From an uncultured Candidatus Saccharibacteria bacterium (GTDB taxonomy: Bacteria > Patescibacteriota > Saccharimonadia > Saccharimonadales > UBA10212): a stretch of DNA of 64,000 nt. The position numbers were made by a program, and so were the translations under genes. A model generated the notes under the pieces. It made no database searches. It was not told the origin of the DNA and saw nothing but the letters and a program-made list of their open reading frames with translations. The stretch is taken from positions 1,351 to 65,350 of the forward strand of contig CAYWQH010000009.1 in assembly GCA_964460855.1 (NCBI GenBank), read 5' to 3'. Of the stretch, positions 473 to 51,843 are shown piece after piece. Numbering within the stretch: the stretch's first letter is position 1; every line of letters begins with the position of its first letter.

Positions 473-3061
473 TTCTGTTGCCGGCGCCGCGGCCTGGCTG
501 AACTGGGCGATTTCGTTATCGAGGTTATGTAAAATCTGCAACTGCTCTTCCAGTTGCTGCTTGGACTGATGGACCATCTCTTTGGGCGCCTTATGCAGGT
601 AATCTTGGTTATTTAGCCGGTGTTCTAAGCGGCGGATTACCAGCCGGCAGCCCAATTTTTGCTGCTGAAGTTCGGCAATGTAGCTTTCGGCGGTTTGGCG
701 GTCGATATCGAGCCACACGGCGTGCGGCGAGCGGGTTAGGCGTAGCCCCTGCCCCTCTTTAAGCTCGCGGACTTCGCCCAGTTTGCCCAACGCGGCAACC
801 AGGGCTGTATTCTTGCCGATAAAATCAGCGCCGCTGTAATACAGGTTAGGCTTAAAGCTTGGCTTTAGGTTGCGCAGAATATGGCGGCTTTCGGAAATGA
901 TAGTCTTTAGCTCTTCAAATTCCCGGGCCTCACCAATATGTGCTTTGGGCAAGTGCTGCCAGGTCTGGATGGCGAGAATATTTTCCTGGTCGGCAGCCAG
1001 CGTTTGCCAGATGGTTTCAGTAACAAACGGTGCAAATGGATGGGCTAGTTTGAGGGTTTCTTCGGTAACCAGCTTCAGCAACGGTAAATTCAGGTCAATT
1101 TTGCTGGCTTCTATATACCAGTCGGCCAAGTCGTCCCAAACAAAGCGGTACAAACTTTCGTAAGCCTCATTAAGCCGGTAATTATCCAAACTGTGGCTTA
1201 TTTGATCTGTTGTATGTTGTAACTTCGACAATATCCAATGGTCGGCTATGCTATGCGGTTCGGGCTTGGCCTCGCCTATTTTCTGGTCGGCTAACTTTCC
1301 TTCGACGTAGCGGGCGATATTCCAGAGTTTATTGCAGAAATTGCGGCCACCCTCGAACTTGGTCCGGTCGAAGCTGCTGTTTAGCCCGGCGGTCCGGCCG
1401 GCTAAGATACCAAGGCGCAGCGCGTCTGAGCCGAATTGCTCAACTATTTCCATCGGATTGAGCACATTGCCTTTGCTTTTGCTCATTTTTTGGCCGGTTT
1501 CATCTTGGATTAAGCCGTGCAAGTAAACGTTTTTAAACGGCGGCTCCCCTGTTAAGTAAAGCCCCAGGCCAAGCATCCTGGTTACCCACTGGTTTAAGAT
1601 GTCGTAGCCGGTTTCCATTAAGCTTAAGGGGTAAAATTTCCGGAAGTCTTCACTATCCGGGTAGTTGAGCGTGACCAACGGCCAGTGGCCACTGCTAAAC
1701 CAGGTGTCGAAAACGTCGGGGTCGCGGTGGTAGGTTTTACCTTCGCGGTTCAAATACTCTTCGTTTACATCGGCGCTGAATACCCAATCTTCGGGGTCGT
1801 CGATGTTGCGGTAGGCGGGAATTGGAATGCCCCAGGCAATCTGGCGGCTGATATTCCAGTCGCGGATGCCTTCGAGGTAACGGATAGTTTCTTTGAGCTT
1901 GCTTTTGGGATACAGAGCTACTCTGCCCTCTTTGAGGGAGGCAATTGATAGCTTGGCCAGCGGCTGCATTTTAACGAACCACTGCTCGCGCAGCAGCGGC
2001 TCGATAACATTCTTACATTTGTAACAAACCCCAACGGTGTGGGTGTAAGGCTCGATTTTGCGCATCAATCCCTTTTTGTCGATGGCTTTGGCTACGGCTT
2101 CGCGGGCTTCGAGGACGCCCATGCCCCGGAACTGCTCCGGTACATTTTCGCTCATCTTGCCTTCGTGGGTGATTAGCTCCAGTACCGGCAAATTATGGCG
2201 CTGGGCGACTTCGAAATCGTTTATATCATGGCCCGGAGTAACTGTTACTACCCCAGTTCCGAACGCCGGGTCAACATAGTCATCGCCAATAATTTGGATG
2301 GGTACTTCCGGTACCAGCGGCTGGTGGACGATTTTGCCAATCAGGTGCTTATAACGCTCGTCTTTGGGGTTAACCATCAGGGCGGCCTGCCCCAGCTTGG
2401 TTTCCGGCCGGGTGGTGGCGATAACCACTTCCCCGCTGCCATCGGCCAGCGGGTAGGCGATATGCCACAACTTGGTTTTTTCCTCGACGTGTTCGACTTC
2501 GATATCAGAAAAGCTGGTGCCATGGAAAGTACAGAAATTAACTACCCGTTTACCCCTGTAAATGAGGCCTTCGTCCCACATTTTCTGGAAAGTCCCATAG
2601 GCGGCATCAACCACCTTTTGGTCGAGCGTAAAGGTATATCGGGACCAGTCGGCGCTGATGCCTAAGGCCCGCAGCTGCCTTTCGAAGTTTTCCTTGTTTT
2701 GCTGGACGAAATCCCAAACCTGGTCGTAAAGCTCCTGGCGGGTGTAGTCGAAGCGGCTTTTACCCTGCTCTTGCAGCTGGCGCTCATAAACCACCCAGGT
2801 TTCGAAACCGGCGTGGTCGGAGCCCGGTACATAAAGGGTCGGTTTGCCCTGCATGCGGTGGTAGCGTACCAGAGTGTCTTCGATGGCTACTGTTAAGGCA
2901 TGGCCAAGGTGAAGGTCGCCGTTGGCGTTGGGCGGCGGCAAAACAGTACTGAAATAGCCTTCCCCGCCCCTGTTATGCGGCTGGAATACACCGCCCTGCT
3001 CCCACAGTGCGTATATGTTAGCTTCGTAGTGTCCCGGTTCGTAAACGCTAGGTAATTTCAT
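461..3061 (-). CDS. valS: valine--tRNA ligase
   Basis: 866 aa. Class I HIGH-type motif 'PPPNANGDLHLGH', 'KMSKSKGNV' motif, 'TTRPET' editing-domain signature and a C-terminal coiled coil. Confidence 0.95.
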   Translation of the reverse strand: MKLPSVYEPGHYEANIYALWEQGGVFQPHNRGGEGYFSTVLPPPNANGDLHLGHALTVAIEDTLVRYHRMQGKPTLYVPGSDHAGFETWVVYERQLQEQGKSRFDYTRQELYDQVWDFVQQNKENFERQLRALGISADWSRYTFTLDQKVVDAAYGTFQKMWDEGLIYRGKRVVNFCTFHGTSFSDIEVEHVEEKTKLWHIAYPLADGSGEVVIATTRPETKLGQAALMVNPKDERYKHLIGKIVHQPLVPEVPIQIIGDDYVDPAFGTGVVTVTPGHDINDFEVAQRHNLPVLELITHEGKMSENVPEQFRGMGVLEAREAVAKAIDKKGLMRKIEPYTHTVGVCYKCKNVIEPLLREQWFVKMQPLAKLSIASLKEGRVALYPKSKLKETIRYLEGIRDWNISRQIAWGIPIPAYRNIDDPEDWVFSADVNEEYLNREGKTYHRDPDVFDTWFSSGHWPLVTLNYPDSEDFRKFYPLSLMETGYDILNQWVTRMLGLGLYLTGEPPFKNVYLHGLIQDETGQKMSKSKGNVLNPMEIVEQFGSDALRLGILAGRTAGLNSSFDRTKFEGGRNFCNKLWNIARYVEGKLADQKIGEAKPEPHSIADHWILSKLQHTTDQISHSLDNYRLNEAYESLYRFVWDDLADWYIEASKIDLNLPLLKLVTEETLKLAHPFAPFVTETIWQTLAADQENILAIQTWQHLPKAHIGEAREFEELKTIISESRHILRNLKPSFKPNLYYSGADFIGKNTALVAALGKLGEVRELKEGQGLRLTRSPHAVWLDIDRQTAESYIAELQQQKLGCRLVIRRLEHRLNNQDYLHKAPKEMVHQSKQQLEEQLQILHNLDNEIAQFSQAAAPATESES

Positions 3062-6634: not shown

Positions 6635-6663
6635 TTGACAAAAAACTGCAATAAGTGTAAAGT
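6635..6663 (+). promoter_or_regulatory. sigma70-type promoter (TTGACA-17 nt-TAAAGT) with no ORF downstream
   Basis: TTGACA at 6635-6640, a 17-nt spacer, TAAAGT at 6658-6663. Confidence 0.4.
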
Positions 6664-6669
6664 ATATCT

Positions 6670-6813
6670 GTTAACAATCCATTAAATCAGCAATGAAGCT
6701 TATCCCGTAACGGTTGGTCGCTTGGGATAAGTGGAGCCAGTAGCGAACCCACGGCTTAATGAGTCAGTAATTTTTTGATTTTGATAATCCCGGGTTTTCT
6801 GCCCGGGTTTTTT
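6670..6813 (+). ncRNA. candidate small RNA or orphan leader (unclassified)
   Basis: About 145 nt between the promoter at 6635 and the terminator at 6789-6813. It contains the hairpin CTTATCCC...GGGATAAG and has no credible ORF. Confidence 0.25.
6789..6813 (+). terminator. rho-independent terminator
   Basis: CCCGGG-ttttctg-CCCGGG stem-loop followed by TTTTTT. Confidence 0.6.
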
Positions 6814-6829
6814 GTTGTTTTAAGCGGCC

Positions 6830-6850
6830 GATAATATTACTGTTCGAACC
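6830..6850 (+). promoter_or_regulatory. -10 box plus initial transcribed sequence of the promoter-leader module shared with other GC-rich cassettes
   Basis: GATAAT followed by ATTACTGTTCGAACC. The 14-mer ATAATATTACTGTT recurs on the minus strand at 50504-50517. Confidence 0.4.
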
Positions 6851-7018
6851 CGGGATTGGTAGCTTTCCTTACCAGCCCCGGATCCGAACGGTAATCCGGC
6901 TAAAATTGTCGAACCTTAACTTTCGCTGTCTTTTCACTACAGAAAGGAGTGCAGCGACTAGTTTCCTGAACGAGAAAGGTTTGCCCGAAGTACGTCCAAT
7001 CCATTTAAGGAGCAGAAC

Positions 7019-8383
7019 GTGTTCAAAAAGCGAAACCTGGCCATACTTGGCGCCTTGGTTGGCGTCTCGCTGGCCACGGTGCTGGCCATGTCGGCCACTG
7101 CCAGTTCGTCCACCAAGGCCGTCAACACCCCTATGGGGCAGATCATCCCGGCCTCCCAGGCCCTCAAGCTGGTCAAGGCCTCGCGCCTGAACCGCAAGGT
7201 GCCGGTCGGCTTCTGCGCCCGCAACGGCGTGATTCGCTGGCTCTTCGTCGGCGGCGACGCGCAGGACCCCCACATGACGAAGGCGATGTTCATCCGCGAC
7301 TACGGCAACACCGCCGCGATCCCGGCCATGGAACGGGGCTTCGCCTGCATCAGCCATAACGCGGCGGCCATCGCGGCCGTTTCGCGTCAGCTGGTGTGGA
7401 ACATCCACAAGGGCCACGTGTCGTCCTGCAAGGTGCTGTCCGGCACCTACCTGCCCGCGCTCGGCTACCACTACCTCCGCCATCCATCAATCAAGGCGGC
7501 GGTGTGGTCCGGCAAGGGCACGCTGGGCTGCGTGCAGTCGACCGTCAAGGGCGTGCCCTTCGGTCGTACCTGGGAGGCGATGTGCGGCCCGGCCGTTTGC
7601 ACCTACCAGCGCGTCGCCGACGCCACGTTTGCGGCCGTCAACCGCAGGCCCGGCGGCCCCGATGGCAGCGGCTGCGGCAACATGATTCCGAAGATGATTC
7701 GGACTCGCATCGTGCTGGTGCGCAAGCGATTCCCGGTGGCGAACTTCGCTACCAAGGGCTGGAGCTTCGCGGGCCTGCCTTGGCAGATGCCGGCTGGCGC
7801 CGCGCACCTGCTGGTTAAGTTCCGGCCGCTCAACCCCATCAGCCACAAGTTCGGCGCCGTGACGTCCACGGTGGTCGCCACCCACAACGGCGCCATCTCG
7901 CTGGGCAATGCCTGGCCAGGGTCCCAGTACTGGGTCGCCGAGCTCCATCCCAAGCCCGGCACGGTCGTCATCGACCCGACCACCCACGTGTCCTACAACA
8001 TGGACGCCTGGACGGTCGACCCGCGCGTGCTGACCTTCACCGTCGGCGCCCATCCCACCACGGTCCACTTCGGCAACACGGCCGCGCCATGCATGTGCGT
8101 GGAGTGCATGGGCCACGGCAACTTCGCGGCTGGCTACACCTACACCCGGGAGTTCATGATCACCAGCTGGCAGGGCCCGATGGACGCCCACGCCAAGAGC
8201 CTGATCAAGATCTCTTCGACAACGCCGGCTACGGTCCAGTTCGTCTCCTTCACCACGACCCAGCCGAACCAGTTCGGCGACGTCCTGGTCCAGGTGACCT
8301 TCAAGGCCCTCCAGGCCGGCGCCGGCAACTTGCACGTCGCGTTCGGCAGCGTCCACGATGACGCCCCGCTGACCGTCAAGTAG
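7019..8383 (+). CDS. secreted cysteine-containing protein of unknown function (GC-rich cassette)
   Basis: GTG start 6 nt after AAGGAG. N-terminal signal peptide 'MFKKRNLAILGALVGVSLATVLAMSATA'. Third codon positions are almost all G/C, which picks this frame over the overlapping shadow ORFs. Confidence 0.75.
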   Translation: MFKKRNLAILGALVGVSLATVLAMSATASSSTKAVNTPMGQIIPASQALKLVKASRLNRKVPVGFCARNGVIRWLFVGGDAQDPHMTKAMFIRDYGNTAAIPAMERGFACISHNAAAIAAVSRQLVWNIHKGHVSSCKVLSGTYLPALGYHYLRHPSIKAAVWSGKGTLGCVQSTVKGVPFGRTWEAMCGPAVCTYQRVADATFAAVNRRPGGPDGSGCGNMIPKMIRTRIVLVRKRFPVANFATKGWSFAGLPWQMPAGAAHLLVKFRPLNPISHKFGAVTSTVVATHNGAISLGNAWPGSQYWVAELHPKPGTVVIDPTTHVSYNMDAWTVDPRVLTFTVGAHPTTVHFGNTAAPCMCVECMGHGNFAAGYTYTREFMITSWQGPMDAHAKSLIKISSTTPATVQFVSFTTTQPNQFGDVLVQVTFKALQAGAGNLHVAFGSVHDDAPLTVK

Positions 8384-8407
8384 TCCGCTCGTTCGGGGAA
8401 GCACAAC

Positions 8408-8437
8408 GTTCACCCATCCCTACGGGGATGGGTGAAC
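8408..8437 (+). terminator. perfect 13-bp GC-rich hairpin terminator
   Basis: GTTCACCCATCCC-tacg-GGGATGGGTGAAC, 24 nt after the stop codon. Confidence 0.6.
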
Positions 8438-8448
8438 AACCCCACCAA

Positions 8449-8473
8449 CCGCCAAAGTATAGGCGGCTTTTTT
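8449..8473 (+). terminator. second, native-style rho-independent terminator
   Basis: CCGCC-aaagtata-GGCGG followed by CTTTTTT. Confidence 0.55.
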
Positions 8474-8480
8474 ATATCTA

Positions 8481-8508
8481 TTGACAGCCAAATTGGCACT
8501 CGTATATT
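8481..8508 (+). promoter_or_regulatory. groESL promoter
   Basis: TTGACA at 8481-8486 and TATATT at 8503-8508. Confidence 0.6.
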
Positions 8509-8519
8509 ATGAGTGCTAG
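8493..8519 (+). promoter_or_regulatory. CIRCE operator (HrcA binding site)
   Basis: TTGGCACTC-N9-GAGTGCTAG matches the CIRCE consensus TTAGCACTC-N9-GAGTGCTAA and overlaps the groES promoter. Confidence 0.85.
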
Positions 8520-8564
8520 AAATCAGCAAAATAACGCTGGTAAAAAATTATCTTAGGAGGAAGC

Positions 8565-18229: not shown

Positions 18230-18319
18230 GGAGAGGTCGCATAGTGGCCGAGTGCGCTACCTTGGAAAGGTAGTATAGGGGCAACTCTATCGAGGGTTCG
18301 AATCCCTCTCTCTCCGCCA
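18230..18319 (+). tRNA. tRNA-Ser (anticodon GGA), CCA encoded
   Basis: Acceptor stem GGAGAGG/CTCTCTCC, anticodon stem-loop CTACC-TTGGAAA-GGTAG, a long variable arm, T-arm GAGGG-TTCGAAT-CCCTC, and a terminal GCCA. Confidence 0.9.
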
Positions 18320-40721: not shown

Positions 40722-41381
40722 CTACAGGCCGAAGTTGCGGTGGAAGTTCTCGTACGCCGACAGCGGCGCCGGCTCCCGCTCGGGCTCCGGCTCGCTCTCC
40801 AGCTCCGGCTCGCTCTCCAGTTCGAAGATCGAGTCGAGGGTGTCGACGTAGAAGTCCTGCATCCGATGGTGGTTGGCCCGGATCAGCGGTTCCAGAGCCA
40901 GACGGATGCCGTACCAGTCGCTCGAGTCGTACCTCCTGATGAAGTTGAGGTGGTACGGCACGTCGAGATCGTCGACGACGCCCAGCGTCCGGCGCAGCGC
41001 CTCATCGAGGAGGCGCTTCTCGGACAGGAAGGTGCCGCGGTTGTTAGTGATCCGCAGCACGAGGGCGTCCAGCGCCGGTATGTCGCCGGCGACATCGGTG
41101 CAGACGACGAACGGCACGCGCTCGACCTTGTACACCGGGTTGCAGGCATGCCGGAACTCGGTCTCGAAGATGTCAGCCAGGTCGCTGGCCGAGTAGTAGC
41201 CGGCAGCGCGGGCCATCCACATGAACTCCTCGCGGCCGGGTTGGCCGGCCACGGAGGGCCAGTTGAACGCGATGGCCAGGATGGGCAGGTCGTTGTCGCC
41301 ACTGGCATCACGCACGGTGAGCCAGCAGCCAACGACTTGAACGATGCCGGACGCGATATCATCGCTGAAATCAGACATCAT
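40722..41381 (-). CDS. hypothetical protein, GC-rich cassette (acidic ELESEPE repeat tail)
   Basis: High GC3 in this frame. Tandem ATG ATG directly after GAAGGAGG (either 41381 or 41378 could be the start). C-terminal 'ELESEPELESEPEPEREP'. Confidence 0.65.
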   Translation of the reverse strand: MMSDFSDDIASGIVQVVGCWLTVRDASGDNDLPILAIAFNWPSVAGQPGREEFMWMARAAGYYSASDLADIFETEFRHACNPVYKVERVPFVVCTDVAGDIPALDALVLRITNNRGTFLSEKRLLDEALRRTLGVVDDLDVPYHLNFIRRYDSSDWYGIRLALEPLIRANHHRMQDFYVDTLDSIFELESEPELESEPEPEREPAPLSAYENFHRNFGL

Positions 41382-41452
41382 CCTCCTTCGGGTAGTGGGT
41401 TTACACCCGGTCAAACTGCGTTGCCGCAGCCTAACCGCGACAATCTAAGATT

Positions 41453-42914: not shown

Positions 42915-43039
42915 ATATTAATTATAGCCAGGCAGGGAATTTAAGCTTAAATATATTGTAAAATAGGGCTAATAATGATATAATATGAGTTCAATGCGGA
43001 AATCGGTCCGCATGTACCTGTAGTAAGGAGGTGAGTATC

Positions 43040-43918
43040 TTGCGTGTCCCGACCGACGGGTGGCTGAATGGTGGCTGGAACAACAAGCGCCAGCAGTTCT
43101 ACCTACTGGGCGAGACGGTGGGCCTCGAGCCTAACCCGTCTCCGGAACAGTTGCAGGATACGCTTCGCCGGGTTAGCTCGGCGAAGGTCTTCGCGGAGTC
43201 CATCGCGGACTTCGTGGAGGCGACTGGTATGACCACCAAGCAGGTGGCAGACCGTCTGAAGACGGTCAACCACCAGCTGGGGGTCATGGATCCGCTGCCG
43301 TTCATGTCGCTCAAGGGTCACTGCGACCCGAAGAGCTTCCGCGGCACGGCCATCTGGCCCGCCGGTACGGTTGCCTGGATGCAGCTCCGCTGGGAGCAGA
43401 TCCAGCTGGCCGAGCTGGCCGGCGCGACTTTCGAGCGCGTCATCGTGCTCGGAAGTTCGCGCCAGTGCAACGCTCCGGCCGACCGCCGGCATCCCTACGT
43501 CAACGGGGTCTTCCCCGAGGGCAAGGAGCCGACCGAGCTCGAGCTCATGAAGCAGTGGGTGTTCGCATCCGGCCGAAACACCGGCCAGTATTTGTTCCCC
43601 GAGCTGGACGAGCACAACGAGCAGGGCAAACCGCTCTCGCTGGAGCAGATGCTCCGGCAGTACGGCGAGCGGTACGAGCCCTTCGCGCCTGACTCCCAGG
43701 TGTACGTTCCGGCCAACCCGAACGCATTGTACGTGCCACTGCACGTGCGCCGTGTACTCGGCCTGGACGATGTCTGGCTCAGCCAGGGCGGAGCCCGTCT
43801 GTACAGCGAGATGCCGCCGTACTGGTGGCCCAGCTGCCAGGACCTGATGACGACGCCTTCGGGCATCTTCAGGCTCTGGATCGAGCTGATCCGCAACGGC
43901 TGCATCAACAGCCGGTAA
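43040..43918 (+). CDS. hypothetical protein, GC-rich cassette
   Basis: GC3-biased frame. A TTG at 43040 lies 8 nt after AAGGAGG; the longest ORF begins at a GTG at 43031, abutting the SD. Confidence 0.6.
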   Translation: MRVPTDGWLNGGWNNKRQQFYLLGETVGLEPNPSPEQLQDTLRRVSSAKVFAESIADFVEATGMTTKQVADRLKTVNHQLGVMDPLPFMSLKGHCDPKSFRGTAIWPAGTVAWMQLRWEQIQLAELAGATFERVIVLGSSRQCNAPADRRHPYVNGVFPEGKEPTELELMKQWVFASGRNTGQYLFPELDEHNEQGKPLSLEQMLRQYGERYEPFAPDSQVYVPANPNALYVPLHVRRVLGLDDVWLSQGGARLYSEMPPYWWPSCQDLMTTPSGIFRLWIELIRNGCINSR

Positions 43919-49556: not shown

Positions 49557-50015
49557 CTAGGCGGCGCGCCGGAAATCGATTTCCGGCAGCTCGTCCTCGA
49601 GACTGAGCTGGCCGCTCCGGCGGTTCGGATGCCGCAGGGTCGGATGTTCGACCACCTGGGCTTCGCGCTGCCGTTGGGCCGTGTTGCGCAGCAGCCGGAG
49701 GACTTCGGCCTTGCCGTACGTGTCGCTCCATGCCATCAGGATGGCGAGGAGTTCGACGCCGCCTTTGGCCAGCGTGGTGAAGTACTTGTCGCGCCTACGG
49801 CGCAGCTCGTCAGCCAGCGCCTCCGCCAGGTCGGCCGGGATGATATCGTCGACGTTGTCGTCGTTGACCTCGTCGTAGCCGAGGGCCTGGCCGATGGCCG
49901 TCAGCTGGCAGCCACCGAGGCCGCAGTTGCCGGTGCCCCAGCCGCGCCGCCAGCCGTAGATCTCGATGTTGTAGGCCGCTCGGCATAACACATCCGCGTA
50001 CACTGGACCTCCCAT
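49557..50015 (-). CDS. hypothetical protein, GC-rich cassette
   Basis: 152 aa with a GC3-biased frame. The start is the ATG at 50015, or the GTG at 50003 if GGGAGG serves as the SD. Confidence 0.6.
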   Translation of the reverse strand: MGGPVYADVLCRAAYNIEIYGWRRGWGTGNCGLGGCQLTAIGQALGYDEVNDDNVDDIIPADLAEALADELRRRRDKYFTTLAKGGVELLAILMAWSDTYGKAEVLRLLRNTAQRQREAQVVEHPTLRHPNRRSGQLSLEDELPEIDFRRAA

Positions 50016-50541: not shown

Positions 50542-51843
50542 TCAATCTTCGCCGTTTTGGTAGAGGTCGATGAGGTCTTTGACCGAGCCGAAAGCGATGC
50601 GGTCGAGGATGAAATTGTCCATGTTGACCACCAGCGCCGAAGCGACGGTTAAGTCTCCGTAAGTGTCGTTTATTTCGTCGAGGGCCCGGGCCAGGGCGTG
50701 GCTGTCCAGCCGGGTGCCGTCGTCGAGGCTGAGCTGCAGCGGCTCGTACGGCACCAGGTCGTAAACGGTAATGGCCAGGTGGGCGACCACTTTGGCTGCC
50801 GGCTGTTGGTCTAGGAGACGCGTGGCATGGACATAGATATCCTGCGTCGTGAACAGCCGGCCGCCAATGCGTTCGCCGTGGTGCCACATGGTGCGGTCGT
50901 CGTAAATGCAGCTGACGTGGATGGCTTCGGCGAAGAACCCGTGGCGGCGCAGCCGCCGGCCGGTTTTTTCGCACAGCTTCATCATCAGCCGGTTGAGGTG
51001 GTCGCGGTCGGCGGTTTTTTGGCCGAGCGCGTAAGTGTGGCCGATGCTGCGGCGCTTGAAGTCGACGCCGTCGATCTCCCAGCCCCGCAGCCGTAAATAC
51101 CAGTAGTAGCCATTGATTGATTCGAACACGATCTTTTTAAGCACGTGCATCGGGGCATTAAAGAACTCTAGGGGCGTGGTGATTCCGGCCCGGTAAAGTC
51201 GTCGTCGATTTCGAATATTAATGCCGCAAATATCGAGTAGGTCCATGTGTTGGTATACATCTTGTAAATTCTCCTTGGTTATTACATCTAAGCCGTCGGG
51301 CTTGTGCAGGCCGGCGGCCGTTTTTGCTAAAAAGCGGTTGGTGCCGAGGCCGACATTTACGGTAACGTAACTGCCGACTTCGTCGCGCACCCGCCGCTTA
51401 ATTTCTTTGCCTATTTCAATTAGCGACCGCTCGTCTTTGATGGCCGCGTCGTTAAAGTCGATGATCATTTCGTCGATCGATTTGGGTGTGACCCGGCTGG
51501 TGTAGCTTTCGAATATCCGCTTAAAGCGGATGTGGGCGTCGCGGTACTTGGGCGGGTCGGGCGGCAGCACTATCATATCGGGGCAGAGCTTGAGGCCGTC
51601 CATCACCCGCATGCCGGTTTTAACGCCGCAGCGCTTGGCTTCGTAGCTGGGCGCCAATATGCAGCCGCGGGGGCTAACGTAGGCCGCCACGGCCACCGGC
51701 TTGCCGCGCAGCAGGGGGTTGGCCTGCTGCTCCATGATGGCGAAGCAGCTGTTCATATCGATGTGCATTACCAGCGGCCGGGCGGTGTTAACCGGCATTT
51801 CGATGAAACCCAGCGGGTAGTTAGGCTTCAAACTGTTGGCCAC
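50542..51843 (-). CDS. dinB: Y-family DNA polymerase (DinB/UmuC-like)
   Basis: 'MHIDMNSCFAIMEQ', 'SIDEMIIDF' and little-finger domain length. The GTG start overlaps the upstream stop by 1 nt. Confidence 0.85.
   Translation of the reverse strand: MANSLKPNYPLGFIEMPVNTARPLVMHIDMNSCFAIMEQQANPLLRGKPVAVAAYVSPRGCILAPSYEAKRCGVKTGMRVMDGLKLCPDMIVLPPDPPKYRDAHIRFKRIFESYTSRVTPKSIDEMIIDFNDAAIKDERSLIEIGKEIKRRVRDEVGSYVTVNVGLGTNRFLAKTAAGLHKPDGLDVITKENLQDVYQHMDLLDICGINIRNRRRLYRAGITTPLEFFNAPMHVLKKIVFESINGYYWYLRLRGWEIDGVDFKRRSIGHTYALGQKTADRDHLNRLMMKLCEKTGRRLRRHGFFAEAIHVSCIYDDRTMWHHGERIGGRLFTTQDIYVHATRLLDQQPAAKVVAHLAITVYDLVPYEPLQLSLDDGTRLDSHALARALDEINDTYGDLTVASALVVNMDNFILDRIAFGSVKDLIDLYQNGED

Follow-up and report, generated by a model that had tools for sequence, protein, structure and literature searches.

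The targets of the canonical class II riboswitches for cyclic dimeric guanosine monophosphate (c-di-GMP) include adhesins, surface-anchor proteins and type IV pili (PMC11477304; PMC9481103). In Clostridioides difficile, c-di-GMP-II riboswitches precede CD2831, CD3246, cmrRST and the type IV pilus operon (PMC11477304), and tandem c-di-GMP-II riboswitches precede surface-anchor protein genes (PMC9481103). Among the c-di-GMP-I riboswitches of Bacillus thuringiensis, Bc2 belongs to a collagen adhesion protein (PMC4933901), and Bc1 has a long platform with two terminators (PMC11218506). Diguanylate cyclases have been reported in ultra-small groundwater lineages (PMC9938205). We found no paper that links the c-di-GMP-II riboswitch class to Saccharibacteria. 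Here we describe a locus in a 64,000-nucleotide (nt) stretch (the window) of contig CAYWQH010000009.1, assembly GCA_964460855.1, from an uncultured Candidatus Saccharibacteria bacterium. An aptamer of the c-di-GMP-II clan is followed there by a GC-rich open reading frame (ORF) for an orphan protein of 454 amino acids (aa). We consider it fairly probable that both belong to a single riboswitch-controlled transcription unit, from about 6635 to 8473 on the plus strand, located in a variable slot of Saccharibacteria genomes. Saccharibacteria live attached to other bacteria by means of surface and secreted proteins, whose regulation is, to our knowledge, poorly understood.

A sigma-70-like promoter (TTGACA-17 nt-TAAAGT; 6635-6663, plus strand) matches the consensus at 10 of 12 positions. 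Four consensus-like promoter sites were found in the region versus 0.9 expected from shuffled sequences, and this site was the only one upstream of the ORF on the plus strand. Downstream of it lies the aptamer, 82 nt long (6680-6761, plus strand). A relaxed Rfam scan matched it to RF01786 over the complete model (1-84 of 84) with 37.2 bits and an E value of 1.5e-6 locally or 2.2e-4 window-wide. P1 is formed by 6680-6688 and 6753-6761, and the P3 hairpin by 6698-6706 and 6724-6732; 6716-6722 and 6742-6749 form a pseudoknot in which a single A is bulged. In the Rfam alignment, the aptamer retains the conserved UGAA, GGAG and AGU junctions. Two pair changes, both compensatory, set the pseudoknot strands apart from the Rfam consensus, with GGUCGC in place of GGGCAC in the loop and GCGA in place of GUGC in its partner. 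The 3′ junction, read from the sequence at 6740-6751, is of the GCG type, with AGUAGCGAACC replacing the canonical GUGCAACC. The relaxed whole-window Rfam scan revealed no other riboswitch-like element in the window and no group I intron in the leader, and no additional copy of the aptamer turned up when a covariance model was run on the window and on 16 Saccharibacteria loci that surround the amidinotransferase gene next to the unit.

Metagenomes were scanned with the exact pattern TGGTCGC-N8-16-GGAGNNAGTAGCGAACC, which returned 58 stretches versus about one expected by chance on our estimate. A covariance model built from the window copy identified 65 aptamers in these 58 loci (51 distinct), several of them in tandem. 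Stem sequences were wholly different from member to member. All 19 helix pairs showed double changes, and 93.2% of the cells paired, versus 35-41% in slid controls. Double-change cells numbered 304, versus about 95 in shuffles. On four of five measures none of 500 shuffles reached the observed value, and for pairs with a change on both sides 7 of 500 did. The covariation score was 0.70 versus 0.07-0.10 in slid controls, on an alignment that was fitted to the model, which favors pairing. The pseudoknot was paired in 98.6% of the family cells, and one of its pairs covaries (UA in 47, CG in 3), the other pseudoknot positions having been fixed by the search pattern and hence being uninformative in this respect. 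GC-rich members reached the gathering scores of RF03170, RF01786 or RF03169, whereas low-GC members did not; the RF03170 score was reached by L098 (twice), L108, L116 and L119. In view of this covariation and of the GC-rich relatives at Rfam scores, we take the window copy to be a genuine c-di-GMP-II-clan member of the GCG type that is sub-threshold for the curated models. Its ligand is presumed, by analogy, to be c-di-GMP or a relative. Contig L097 carries two aptamer copies, each before a small protein with a signal peptide, and is assigned to Saccharibacteria by a RarA 85% identical to Saccharibacteria RarA in NCBI. Because both copies lie on a contig so assigned, the GCG-type element is native to the phylum.

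The aptamer is followed after 27 nt by an intrinsic terminator (CCCGGGT-TTTCT-GCCCGGG plus TTTTTT; 6789-6813, plus strand), the candidate expression platform. Its stem has 7 pairs, 6 of them G-C, and forms in both the minimum-free-energy (MFE) and the centroid fold. A competing antiterminator is predicted at 6736-6808 (plus strand), in which the aptamer 3′ segment GCCAGUAGCGAACCC (6736-6750), complementary to the terminator 5′ arm and loop, pairs with GGGUUUUCUGCCCGG of the terminator. In free folding of 6736-6816 the antiterminator reached -20.2 kcal/mol versus -17.1 for the terminator state with the aptamer nucleotides blocked, and it was already present in the fold of 6676-6801, before the 3′ arm is made. 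The duplex scored -13.0 versus -8.1 ± 2.5 for shuffles, of which 4% were as good. The same complementarity was observed in the closest relatives, L101, L099, L131 and L120 (z -2.6 to -3.5). This modelled pairing suggests a ligand-induced OFF switch. Low-GC relatives share a layout of aptamer, 10-30 nt, intrinsic terminator, ribosome-binding site (RBS) and ORF, and a recognizable terminator follows the aptamer in 19 of 49 distinct members. In the window, promoter, aptamer, terminator, RBS (7007-7012) and ORF (from 7019) succeed one another on the same strand.

Between the terminator and the start codon lies a structured leader of 205 nt (6814-7018, plus strand) with hairpins at 6826-6900 and 6910-6983, the RBS AAGGAG 6 nt ahead of the start codon, and native GC (0.44-0.49). 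Folding of 6816-7030 gave z = -3.9, and none of 200 shuffles was as good. A sequence-only reading of this DNA had described a foreign cassette starting at 6816, with a long structured leader of about 175 nt. Both stems that it named are present (CCGGAT/ATCCGG at 6878-6883/6894-6899; CGCTG/CAGCG at 6924-6928/6952-6956), although the MFE fold uses the longer 6826-6900 hairpin in place of the 6-base pair (bp) one. In fact, 203 nt separate 6816 from the start codon, and a start at 6816 cuts the transcription unit, whose transcript probably begins about 150 nt upstream and includes the riboswitch and terminator (6680-6813). The leader, taken as part of the foreign DNA, has native composition and appears to be the tail of the riboswitch 5′ untranslated region. 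No repeat copies of the leader or the 3′ tail were found elsewhere in the window or the related loci, and alignment with the leaders of related loci gave nothing beyond the terminator. The 6826-6900 hairpin is long and imperfect, with arms of ~25-30 nt, and contains a third CCCGGG, a palindrome shared with both terminator arms. An 18-nt direct repeat with 83% identity (6675-6692 CAATCCATTAAATCAGCA and 6997-7014 CAATCCATTTAAGGAGCA, plus strand) has one copy at the aptamer 5′ edge and the other in the ribosome-binding region. The 9 nt that are exactly repeated are no more than chance would give in 2 kb, so the repeat is probably meaningless.

The ORF (7019-8383, plus strand) begins with GTG and has a GC content of 67%, with 0.58, 0.51 and 0.91 at the first, second and third codon positions (GC1, GC2 and GC3). 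Native GC3, determined from 36 ORFs of the window, is 0.567 ± 0.071 with a maximum of 0.69, which places the ORF at z = 4.8. Thus, 7019-8383 is a real coding sequence in its frame, GC-rich and foreign in composition as the sequence-only reading had implied. Overlapping long ORFs of 308, 204, 140 and 126 aa have their GC peak at another codon position or run in a different frame; judged by composition, these frames, including those on the opposite strand, are by-products. The window as a whole has a GC content of ~51%. A step to 0.62-0.71 extends from ~7040 to ~8440, versus ~0.36-0.57 in the flanks. Codons 1-14 have a GC3 of 0.64 versus 0.92 for the remaining codons (P about 4e-4), and the GC-rich block extends from about codon 15 to just beyond a 13-bp hairpin after the stop codon. 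Promoter, aptamer, leader and the terminator that follows this hairpin are of native composition.

The N-terminus of the protein resembles a Sec signal peptide cleaved by signal peptidase I, judged by inspection. It reads MFKKRNLAILGALVGVSLATVLAMSATA before the predicted cleavage site and SSS after it, in the layout MFKKRN-LAILGALVGVSLATVLAM-SATA and then SSS, encoded by codons 1-28 (7019-7102). Basic residues K3, K4 and R5 are followed by an 18-residue hydrophobic core (residues 7-24) and by A26-T-A28 before the serine. Over 15 residues this core has a Kyte-Doolittle mean of 2.36, and no other stretch of that length in the protein is as hydrophobic. The protein sequence contains no twin-arginine motif, N-terminal lipobox cysteine or LPXTG, and no internal repeats. 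It also lacks LPXT[GAS], ends in ...GSVHDDAPLTVK, and therefore does not resemble a sortase substrate; no recognizable anchor or known domain was detected in it. The mature part has a mass of ~45.6 kDa and a pI of ~9.9. Ten cysteines occur, at positions 66, 110, 137, 171, 189, 194, 219, 358, 360 and 363, and the stretch CMCVECMGH is among them. The product thus looks, from its sequence, like a Sec-exported, cysteine-containing protein, which agrees with the earlier proposal. The proposal that it alone among the GC-rich cassettes has a signal peptide also held for the three other GC3-rich ORFs that were translated, 40722-41414 (minus strand), 43031-43918 (plus strand) and 49557-50015 (minus strand), none of which showed a signal-peptide-like N-terminus.

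The 454-aa protein is an orphan. A word-indexed search of 5.8 billion clusters returned the protein itself as sole match, and an exhaustive phmmer search of 1.84 billion representatives returned itself and P0002 only. The P0002 match (E 2.4e-9) was rejected as spurious, since P0002 is a translated tandem repeat that was matched eight times with 28-38% identity over ~60 residues. No family was assigned by Pfam, NCBIfam, PHROGs or PADLOC, a sequence search of the PDB gave nothing below E 0.1, and tblastn against 50,697 phage genomes gave no match. AlphaFold2 models built without an alignment had a predicted local distance difference test (pLDDT) score of 37.7 over the entire protein and 57.8 over residues 340-454, and Foldseek searches of the PDB with these models were uninformative (nothing below E 0.2); neither was used. 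Of the proposed β-rich C-terminal half, a small β-rich domain at residues ~360-445 was seen with moderate confidence only, in a single-sequence model of low confidence (pLDDT 55-78).

Two stacked elements follow the ORF, as had been noted. The first is a hairpin with 13 perfect bp (100% complementary) and a 4-nt loop (8408-8420/8425-8437, plus strand), 24 nt past the stop codon and inside the GC-rich block. No T-tract follows it on the plus strand, and it is therefore not an intrinsic terminator. The second, 11 nt further on and of native composition, is a T-tailed intrinsic terminator (CCGCC-N8-GGCGG plus CTTTTTT; 8449-8473, plus strand; stem 8449-8466). Like that at 6789-6813, it has the stem and T-tract that define this class. 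Folding of the 3′ tail gave z = -4.9. The terminator ends 7 nt before the groES promoter (TTGACA-16 nt-TATATT), which together with a CIRCE-like repeat occupies 8481-8519 (plus strand) and marks the boundary of the unit.

The neighbors of the locus are a Mur-ligase-family gene, a divergent amidinotransferase/DDAH-like gene and groES-groEL. The order Mur ligase-amidinotransferase-groES-groEL is conserved in Saccharibacteria genomes with 46-82% aa identity, and the best matches to an amidinotransferase probe were Candidatus Saccharibacteria metagenome-assembled genomes with at most 71% identity. The amidinotransferase-groES site is variable. Its spacer is 1962 bp in the window. In five relatives (L008, L009, L011, L016 and L017) it is 141-166 bp and holds only the groES promoter and CIRCE. 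In seven loci (L003, L004/L006, L007, L012, L013 and L015) it is 690-1160 bp and holds ORFs of 120-317 aa that are mutually unrelated. The only part of the window spacer that matched relatives by BLAST was the groES promoter/CIRCE region at 8481-8528, found in L004, L006, L007, L011, L012, L015, L016 and the empty-site sequences. No terminator was present upstream of the groES promoter in any of the five empty-site relatives. The relatives compared are distant, with 46-71% aa identity in the flanking gene. Across loci L003-L018 the spacer is a gene-turnover hot spot; that of L015 contains an unrelated GC3-rich ORF (122 aa, GC3 0.84) and has a GC of 0.59 versus 0.49 for the locus. The CIRCE-like inverted repeat, TTGGCACTC-N9-GAGTGCTAG at 8493-8519, overlaps the groES promoter. 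An equivalent occurs in all Saccharibacteria empty sites examined, which implies, on this comparison, a putative HrcA-type heat-shock control of groES.

We propose the following model. Transcription would initiate at the promoter 6635-6663, and the nascent RNA would fold the GCG-type aptamer at 6680-6761. With ligand bound, the pseudoknot and P1 would keep AGUAGCGAACCC in the aptamer, so that the hairpin 6789-6807 with its U-tract could form and transcription would stop at about 6813. In the absence of ligand, AGUAGCGAACCC would pair with the terminator 5′ arm as antiterminator, and read-through would continue across the 205-nt leader into the ORF. The product would be exported via Sec with cleavage of the signal peptide at about A28/S29, and the mature, basic, disulfide-capable protein of ~46 kDa would act outside the cell. 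The genes that the clan regulates in other systems make a role in surface interaction or adhesion the most likely one for it. The coding block from ~7040 to ~8440, including the 13-bp hairpin, was probably acquired horizontally, judging from its composition. Most simply, a native riboswitch unit in a slot of rapid turnover would now contain foreign coding DNA, which may have brought the tail-less hairpin with it.

Several observations weigh against this model. The RF01786 score of the aptamer is below the gathering score of 53.5, other models of the clan (CL00127) score lower still, and clan membership was established from our own comparative set, the copy being sub-threshold for every clan model. 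In the papers searched, no experimentally established ligand for the GCG variant was found. Within the 64-kb window, which is a part of the genome, no frame of 100 aa or more contains a GGDEF motif; EAL-like strings occur only in unrelated GC-rich frames, with no convincing EAL domain. Antiterminator complementarity across the relatives had a mean z of only -0.95, with 21% beyond -1.64. In the whole fold of 6670-6820 the terminator forms regardless, and the ON/OFF direction is thus a kinetic argument. N-terminal hydrophobic segments are borderline more frequent downstream of the variant (38% versus 25%, p = 0.054, from crude ORF calls). As regards horizontal transfer, no donor, flanking mobility gene or target-site duplication was found, and repeats in the flanks did not exceed chance. 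Moreover, the same genome has a GC3-rich gene at 43031-43918 whose Saccharibacteria family shows high GC in several genomes. Finally, the start codon lies 205 nt past the terminator, versus 0-40 nt in most low-GC members, which may point to an unrecognized internal promoter or to a riboswitch orphaned by gene replacement.

The latter possibility survives best among the alternatives, and we regard it as rather unlikely. Promoter, aptamer and terminator would then be a stand-alone small RNA or a remnant, derived from an earlier riboswitch-regulated gene of the slot. The GC-rich ORF would have replaced that gene or been inserted behind it, would be either silent or expressed from an unrecognized leader promoter, and would be a mere neighbor of the riboswitch. 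The long gap, the lack of homology between this leader and those of related loci, and the rapid turnover of the slot among relatives are consistent with this, and the lower GC3 of codons 1-14 could reflect a recombination junction in the signal-peptide region. However, genes in general have low GC3 in their first codons, which is thus no proof of a junction. Four related loci (L086, L093, L099 and L131) likewise have leaders of ~200-240 nt after the same type of terminator. The ORF is also intact over its 454 codons and retains two terminators and a strong RBS, and no alternative promoter was detected.

Somewhat less probable again is a self-contained foreign cassette (6816-8440) with its own leader, coding sequence and hairpin terminator, from a high-GC donor among the Actinomycetota, inserted just upstream of a resident T-tailed terminator and expressed independently of the upstream RNA. 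The sharp step in GC and GC3 agrees with it, as does the position of the tail-less 13-bp hairpin inside the GC-rich block and of the T-tailed terminator outside it. Actinomycetota commonly have hairpin terminators without a tail and export proteins with even cysteine counts. However, the leader at 6814-7018 is outside the foreign block by its GC content and contains no consensus promoter. Insertion upstream of a pre-existing terminator, as the sequence-only reading had proposed, found no support: the five empty sites have no terminator, and the other spacers hold unrelated ORFs. Because the relatives are distant, a pre-existing native unit may nevertheless have been re-filled later. The proposed actinobacterial origin was likewise unsupported, since searches of about 15 billion proteins and of phage genomes yielded no homologue from any lineage. 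The 43031-43918 family is GC-rich in other Saccharibacteria, and GC-richness alone is therefore no pointer to an actinobacterial donor. An artefact, either a chance frame in GC-rich DNA, which does yield long spurious ORFs (several overlap here), or a chimeric assembly with a high-GC organism, is very improbable: the contrast between GC3 and GC2 (0.91/0.51) is specific to the coding frame, a 454-codon stop-free run at 67% GC has a probability of about 3e-5 on our estimate, and RBS, signal peptide and terminators are all present. A chimeric assembly is unlikely because the junctions recur, with 100% identity, in independent Logan assemblies: L001, from another sequencing run, spans Mur ligase to groES and includes both of them, whereas L002 includes the upstream one and ends inside the 3′ hairpin.

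The genes downstream of the riboswitch family were also inspected. Type IV pilin-like proteins are encoded there in L136 and L102; beside the sites at 1884-1943 (minus strand) and 507-566 (plus strand), respectively, the downstream genes encode N-termini of the type KGFTLIELLI..., which connects the variant with pilus genes, like canonical c-di-GMP-II. Small proteins with a signal peptide or an N-terminal membrane segment follow the aptamer in L097 (twice), L098 (twice), L104, L105, L106, L125, L129, L088 and L139, and family-2 glycosyltransferase-like proteins also occur downstream of the variant. By analogy, the secreted orphan fits the theme of canonical c-di-GMP-II targets. Tandem aptamer doublets are spaced ~148 nt apart, each copy with its own terminator. 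Multi-copy or tandem sites were found at L086 1541-1770, L099 1377-1598, L131 125-346, L098 2999-5191, L097 1484-2313, and L106 3858 and 6872. Separate copies also share a contig in L098 (three) and in L097 (two), where every copy precedes a small secreted protein.

Other GC3-rich ORFs of the window differ in their relationships. The ORF 43031-43918 (GC3 0.87) has no Pfam family and 94 homologues, at least one of them named Candidatus Saccharibacteria. In 4 of 4 other contigs (L141-L144), with differing gene contexts, the homologue was richer in GC3 than its neighbors: 0.88 versus 0.40-0.54, 0.83 versus 0.41, 0.79 versus 0.53-0.65, and 0.61 versus 0.37-0.45. This family either keeps its GC-richness or is re-imported repeatedly. 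The ORF 40722-41414 (GC3 0.88) has no family. The ORF 49557-50015 matches DUF6197 (E 3e-8) and, weakly, PHROG 112, and gave no match in the phage tblastn search. A gene for a Y-family DNA polymerase (50542-51843, minus strand; IMS/IMS_C domains) has a moderately raised GC3 of 0.76, and its product is 46% identical to that of an ORF on the riboswitch-bearing contig L104. The only tRNA gene in the window is tRNA-Ser (GGA) at 18230-18319 (plus strand).

The regulatory element adds a sub-threshold member to a riboswitch clan that is already known, and is nothing categorically new. Its value lies in the regulatory handle that it offers. A riboswitch of the second-messenger type before secreted-protein genes, here and twice on L097, could be tested with an 82-nt RNA for ligand probing, a termination read-out and a defined set of downstream genes. 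Low-GC copies of the variant escape the curated thresholds of Rfam, so routine annotation would miss such copies. The 454-aa orphan adds to the evidence for a GC-rich accessory gene pool that circulates in these genomes. More speculatively, the Saccharibacteria sub-family of GCG riboswitches might constitute a small regulon of secreted and pilus-type proteins, in which a native switch captured an orphan of foreign composition; we think this doubtful. If true, a host-interaction effector from an unknown GC-rich pool would have been plugged into a second-messenger circuit, whose ligand may or may not be c-di-GMP.

The closest described RNA is Rfam c-di-GMP-II-GCG (RF03170; clan CL00127, with RF01786 and c-di-GMP-II-GAG, RF03169). 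The window aptamer shares with it the helix order of P1, short P2 and P3 hairpin, the UGAA and GGAG junctions, the pseudoknot between the P3 loop and the 3′ junction, and the replacement at that junction described above. GC-rich sequences retrieved with the pseudoknot strands of the window reach its gathering score. In contrast, none of the three gathering scores is reached by the window copy or by any other low-GC copy, those of L097 included. The window P1 is also shorter, with 9 bp and one mismatch, and ligand binding is predicted.

As in C. difficile, a 5′ untranslated aptamer of the same clan stands ahead of a gene for an exported or surface protein, and as in the tandem c-di-GMP-II arrays, tandem copies occur within the family of the variant (L086, L099, L131 and L098). 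The systems differ in direction, since in C. difficile high c-di-GMP stimulates type IV pili and the CD2831 and CD3246 adhesins (PMC11477304), whereas the window suggests an OFF switch. The window protein has no sortase motif or recognizable adhesin domain, and its host belongs to an ultrasmall episymbiont lineage and not to the Firmicutes. With Bc1 and Bc2 of B. thuringiensis the locus shares a termination-based second-messenger riboswitch before a gene for a secreted or surface protein, and a long structured platform or leader. Their aptamers, however, are of the GEMM-I class, and both Bc1 terminators lie in the platform, whereas the second and third hairpins of the window follow the ORF. 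Like lineage-specific orphan secreted proteins, the window protein has no homologues, occupies a hypervariable intergenic site, and combines a signal peptide with atypical composition. It differs from them in being large (454 aa), in its strong codon-position structure, and in being, on our model, wired to a conserved riboswitch.

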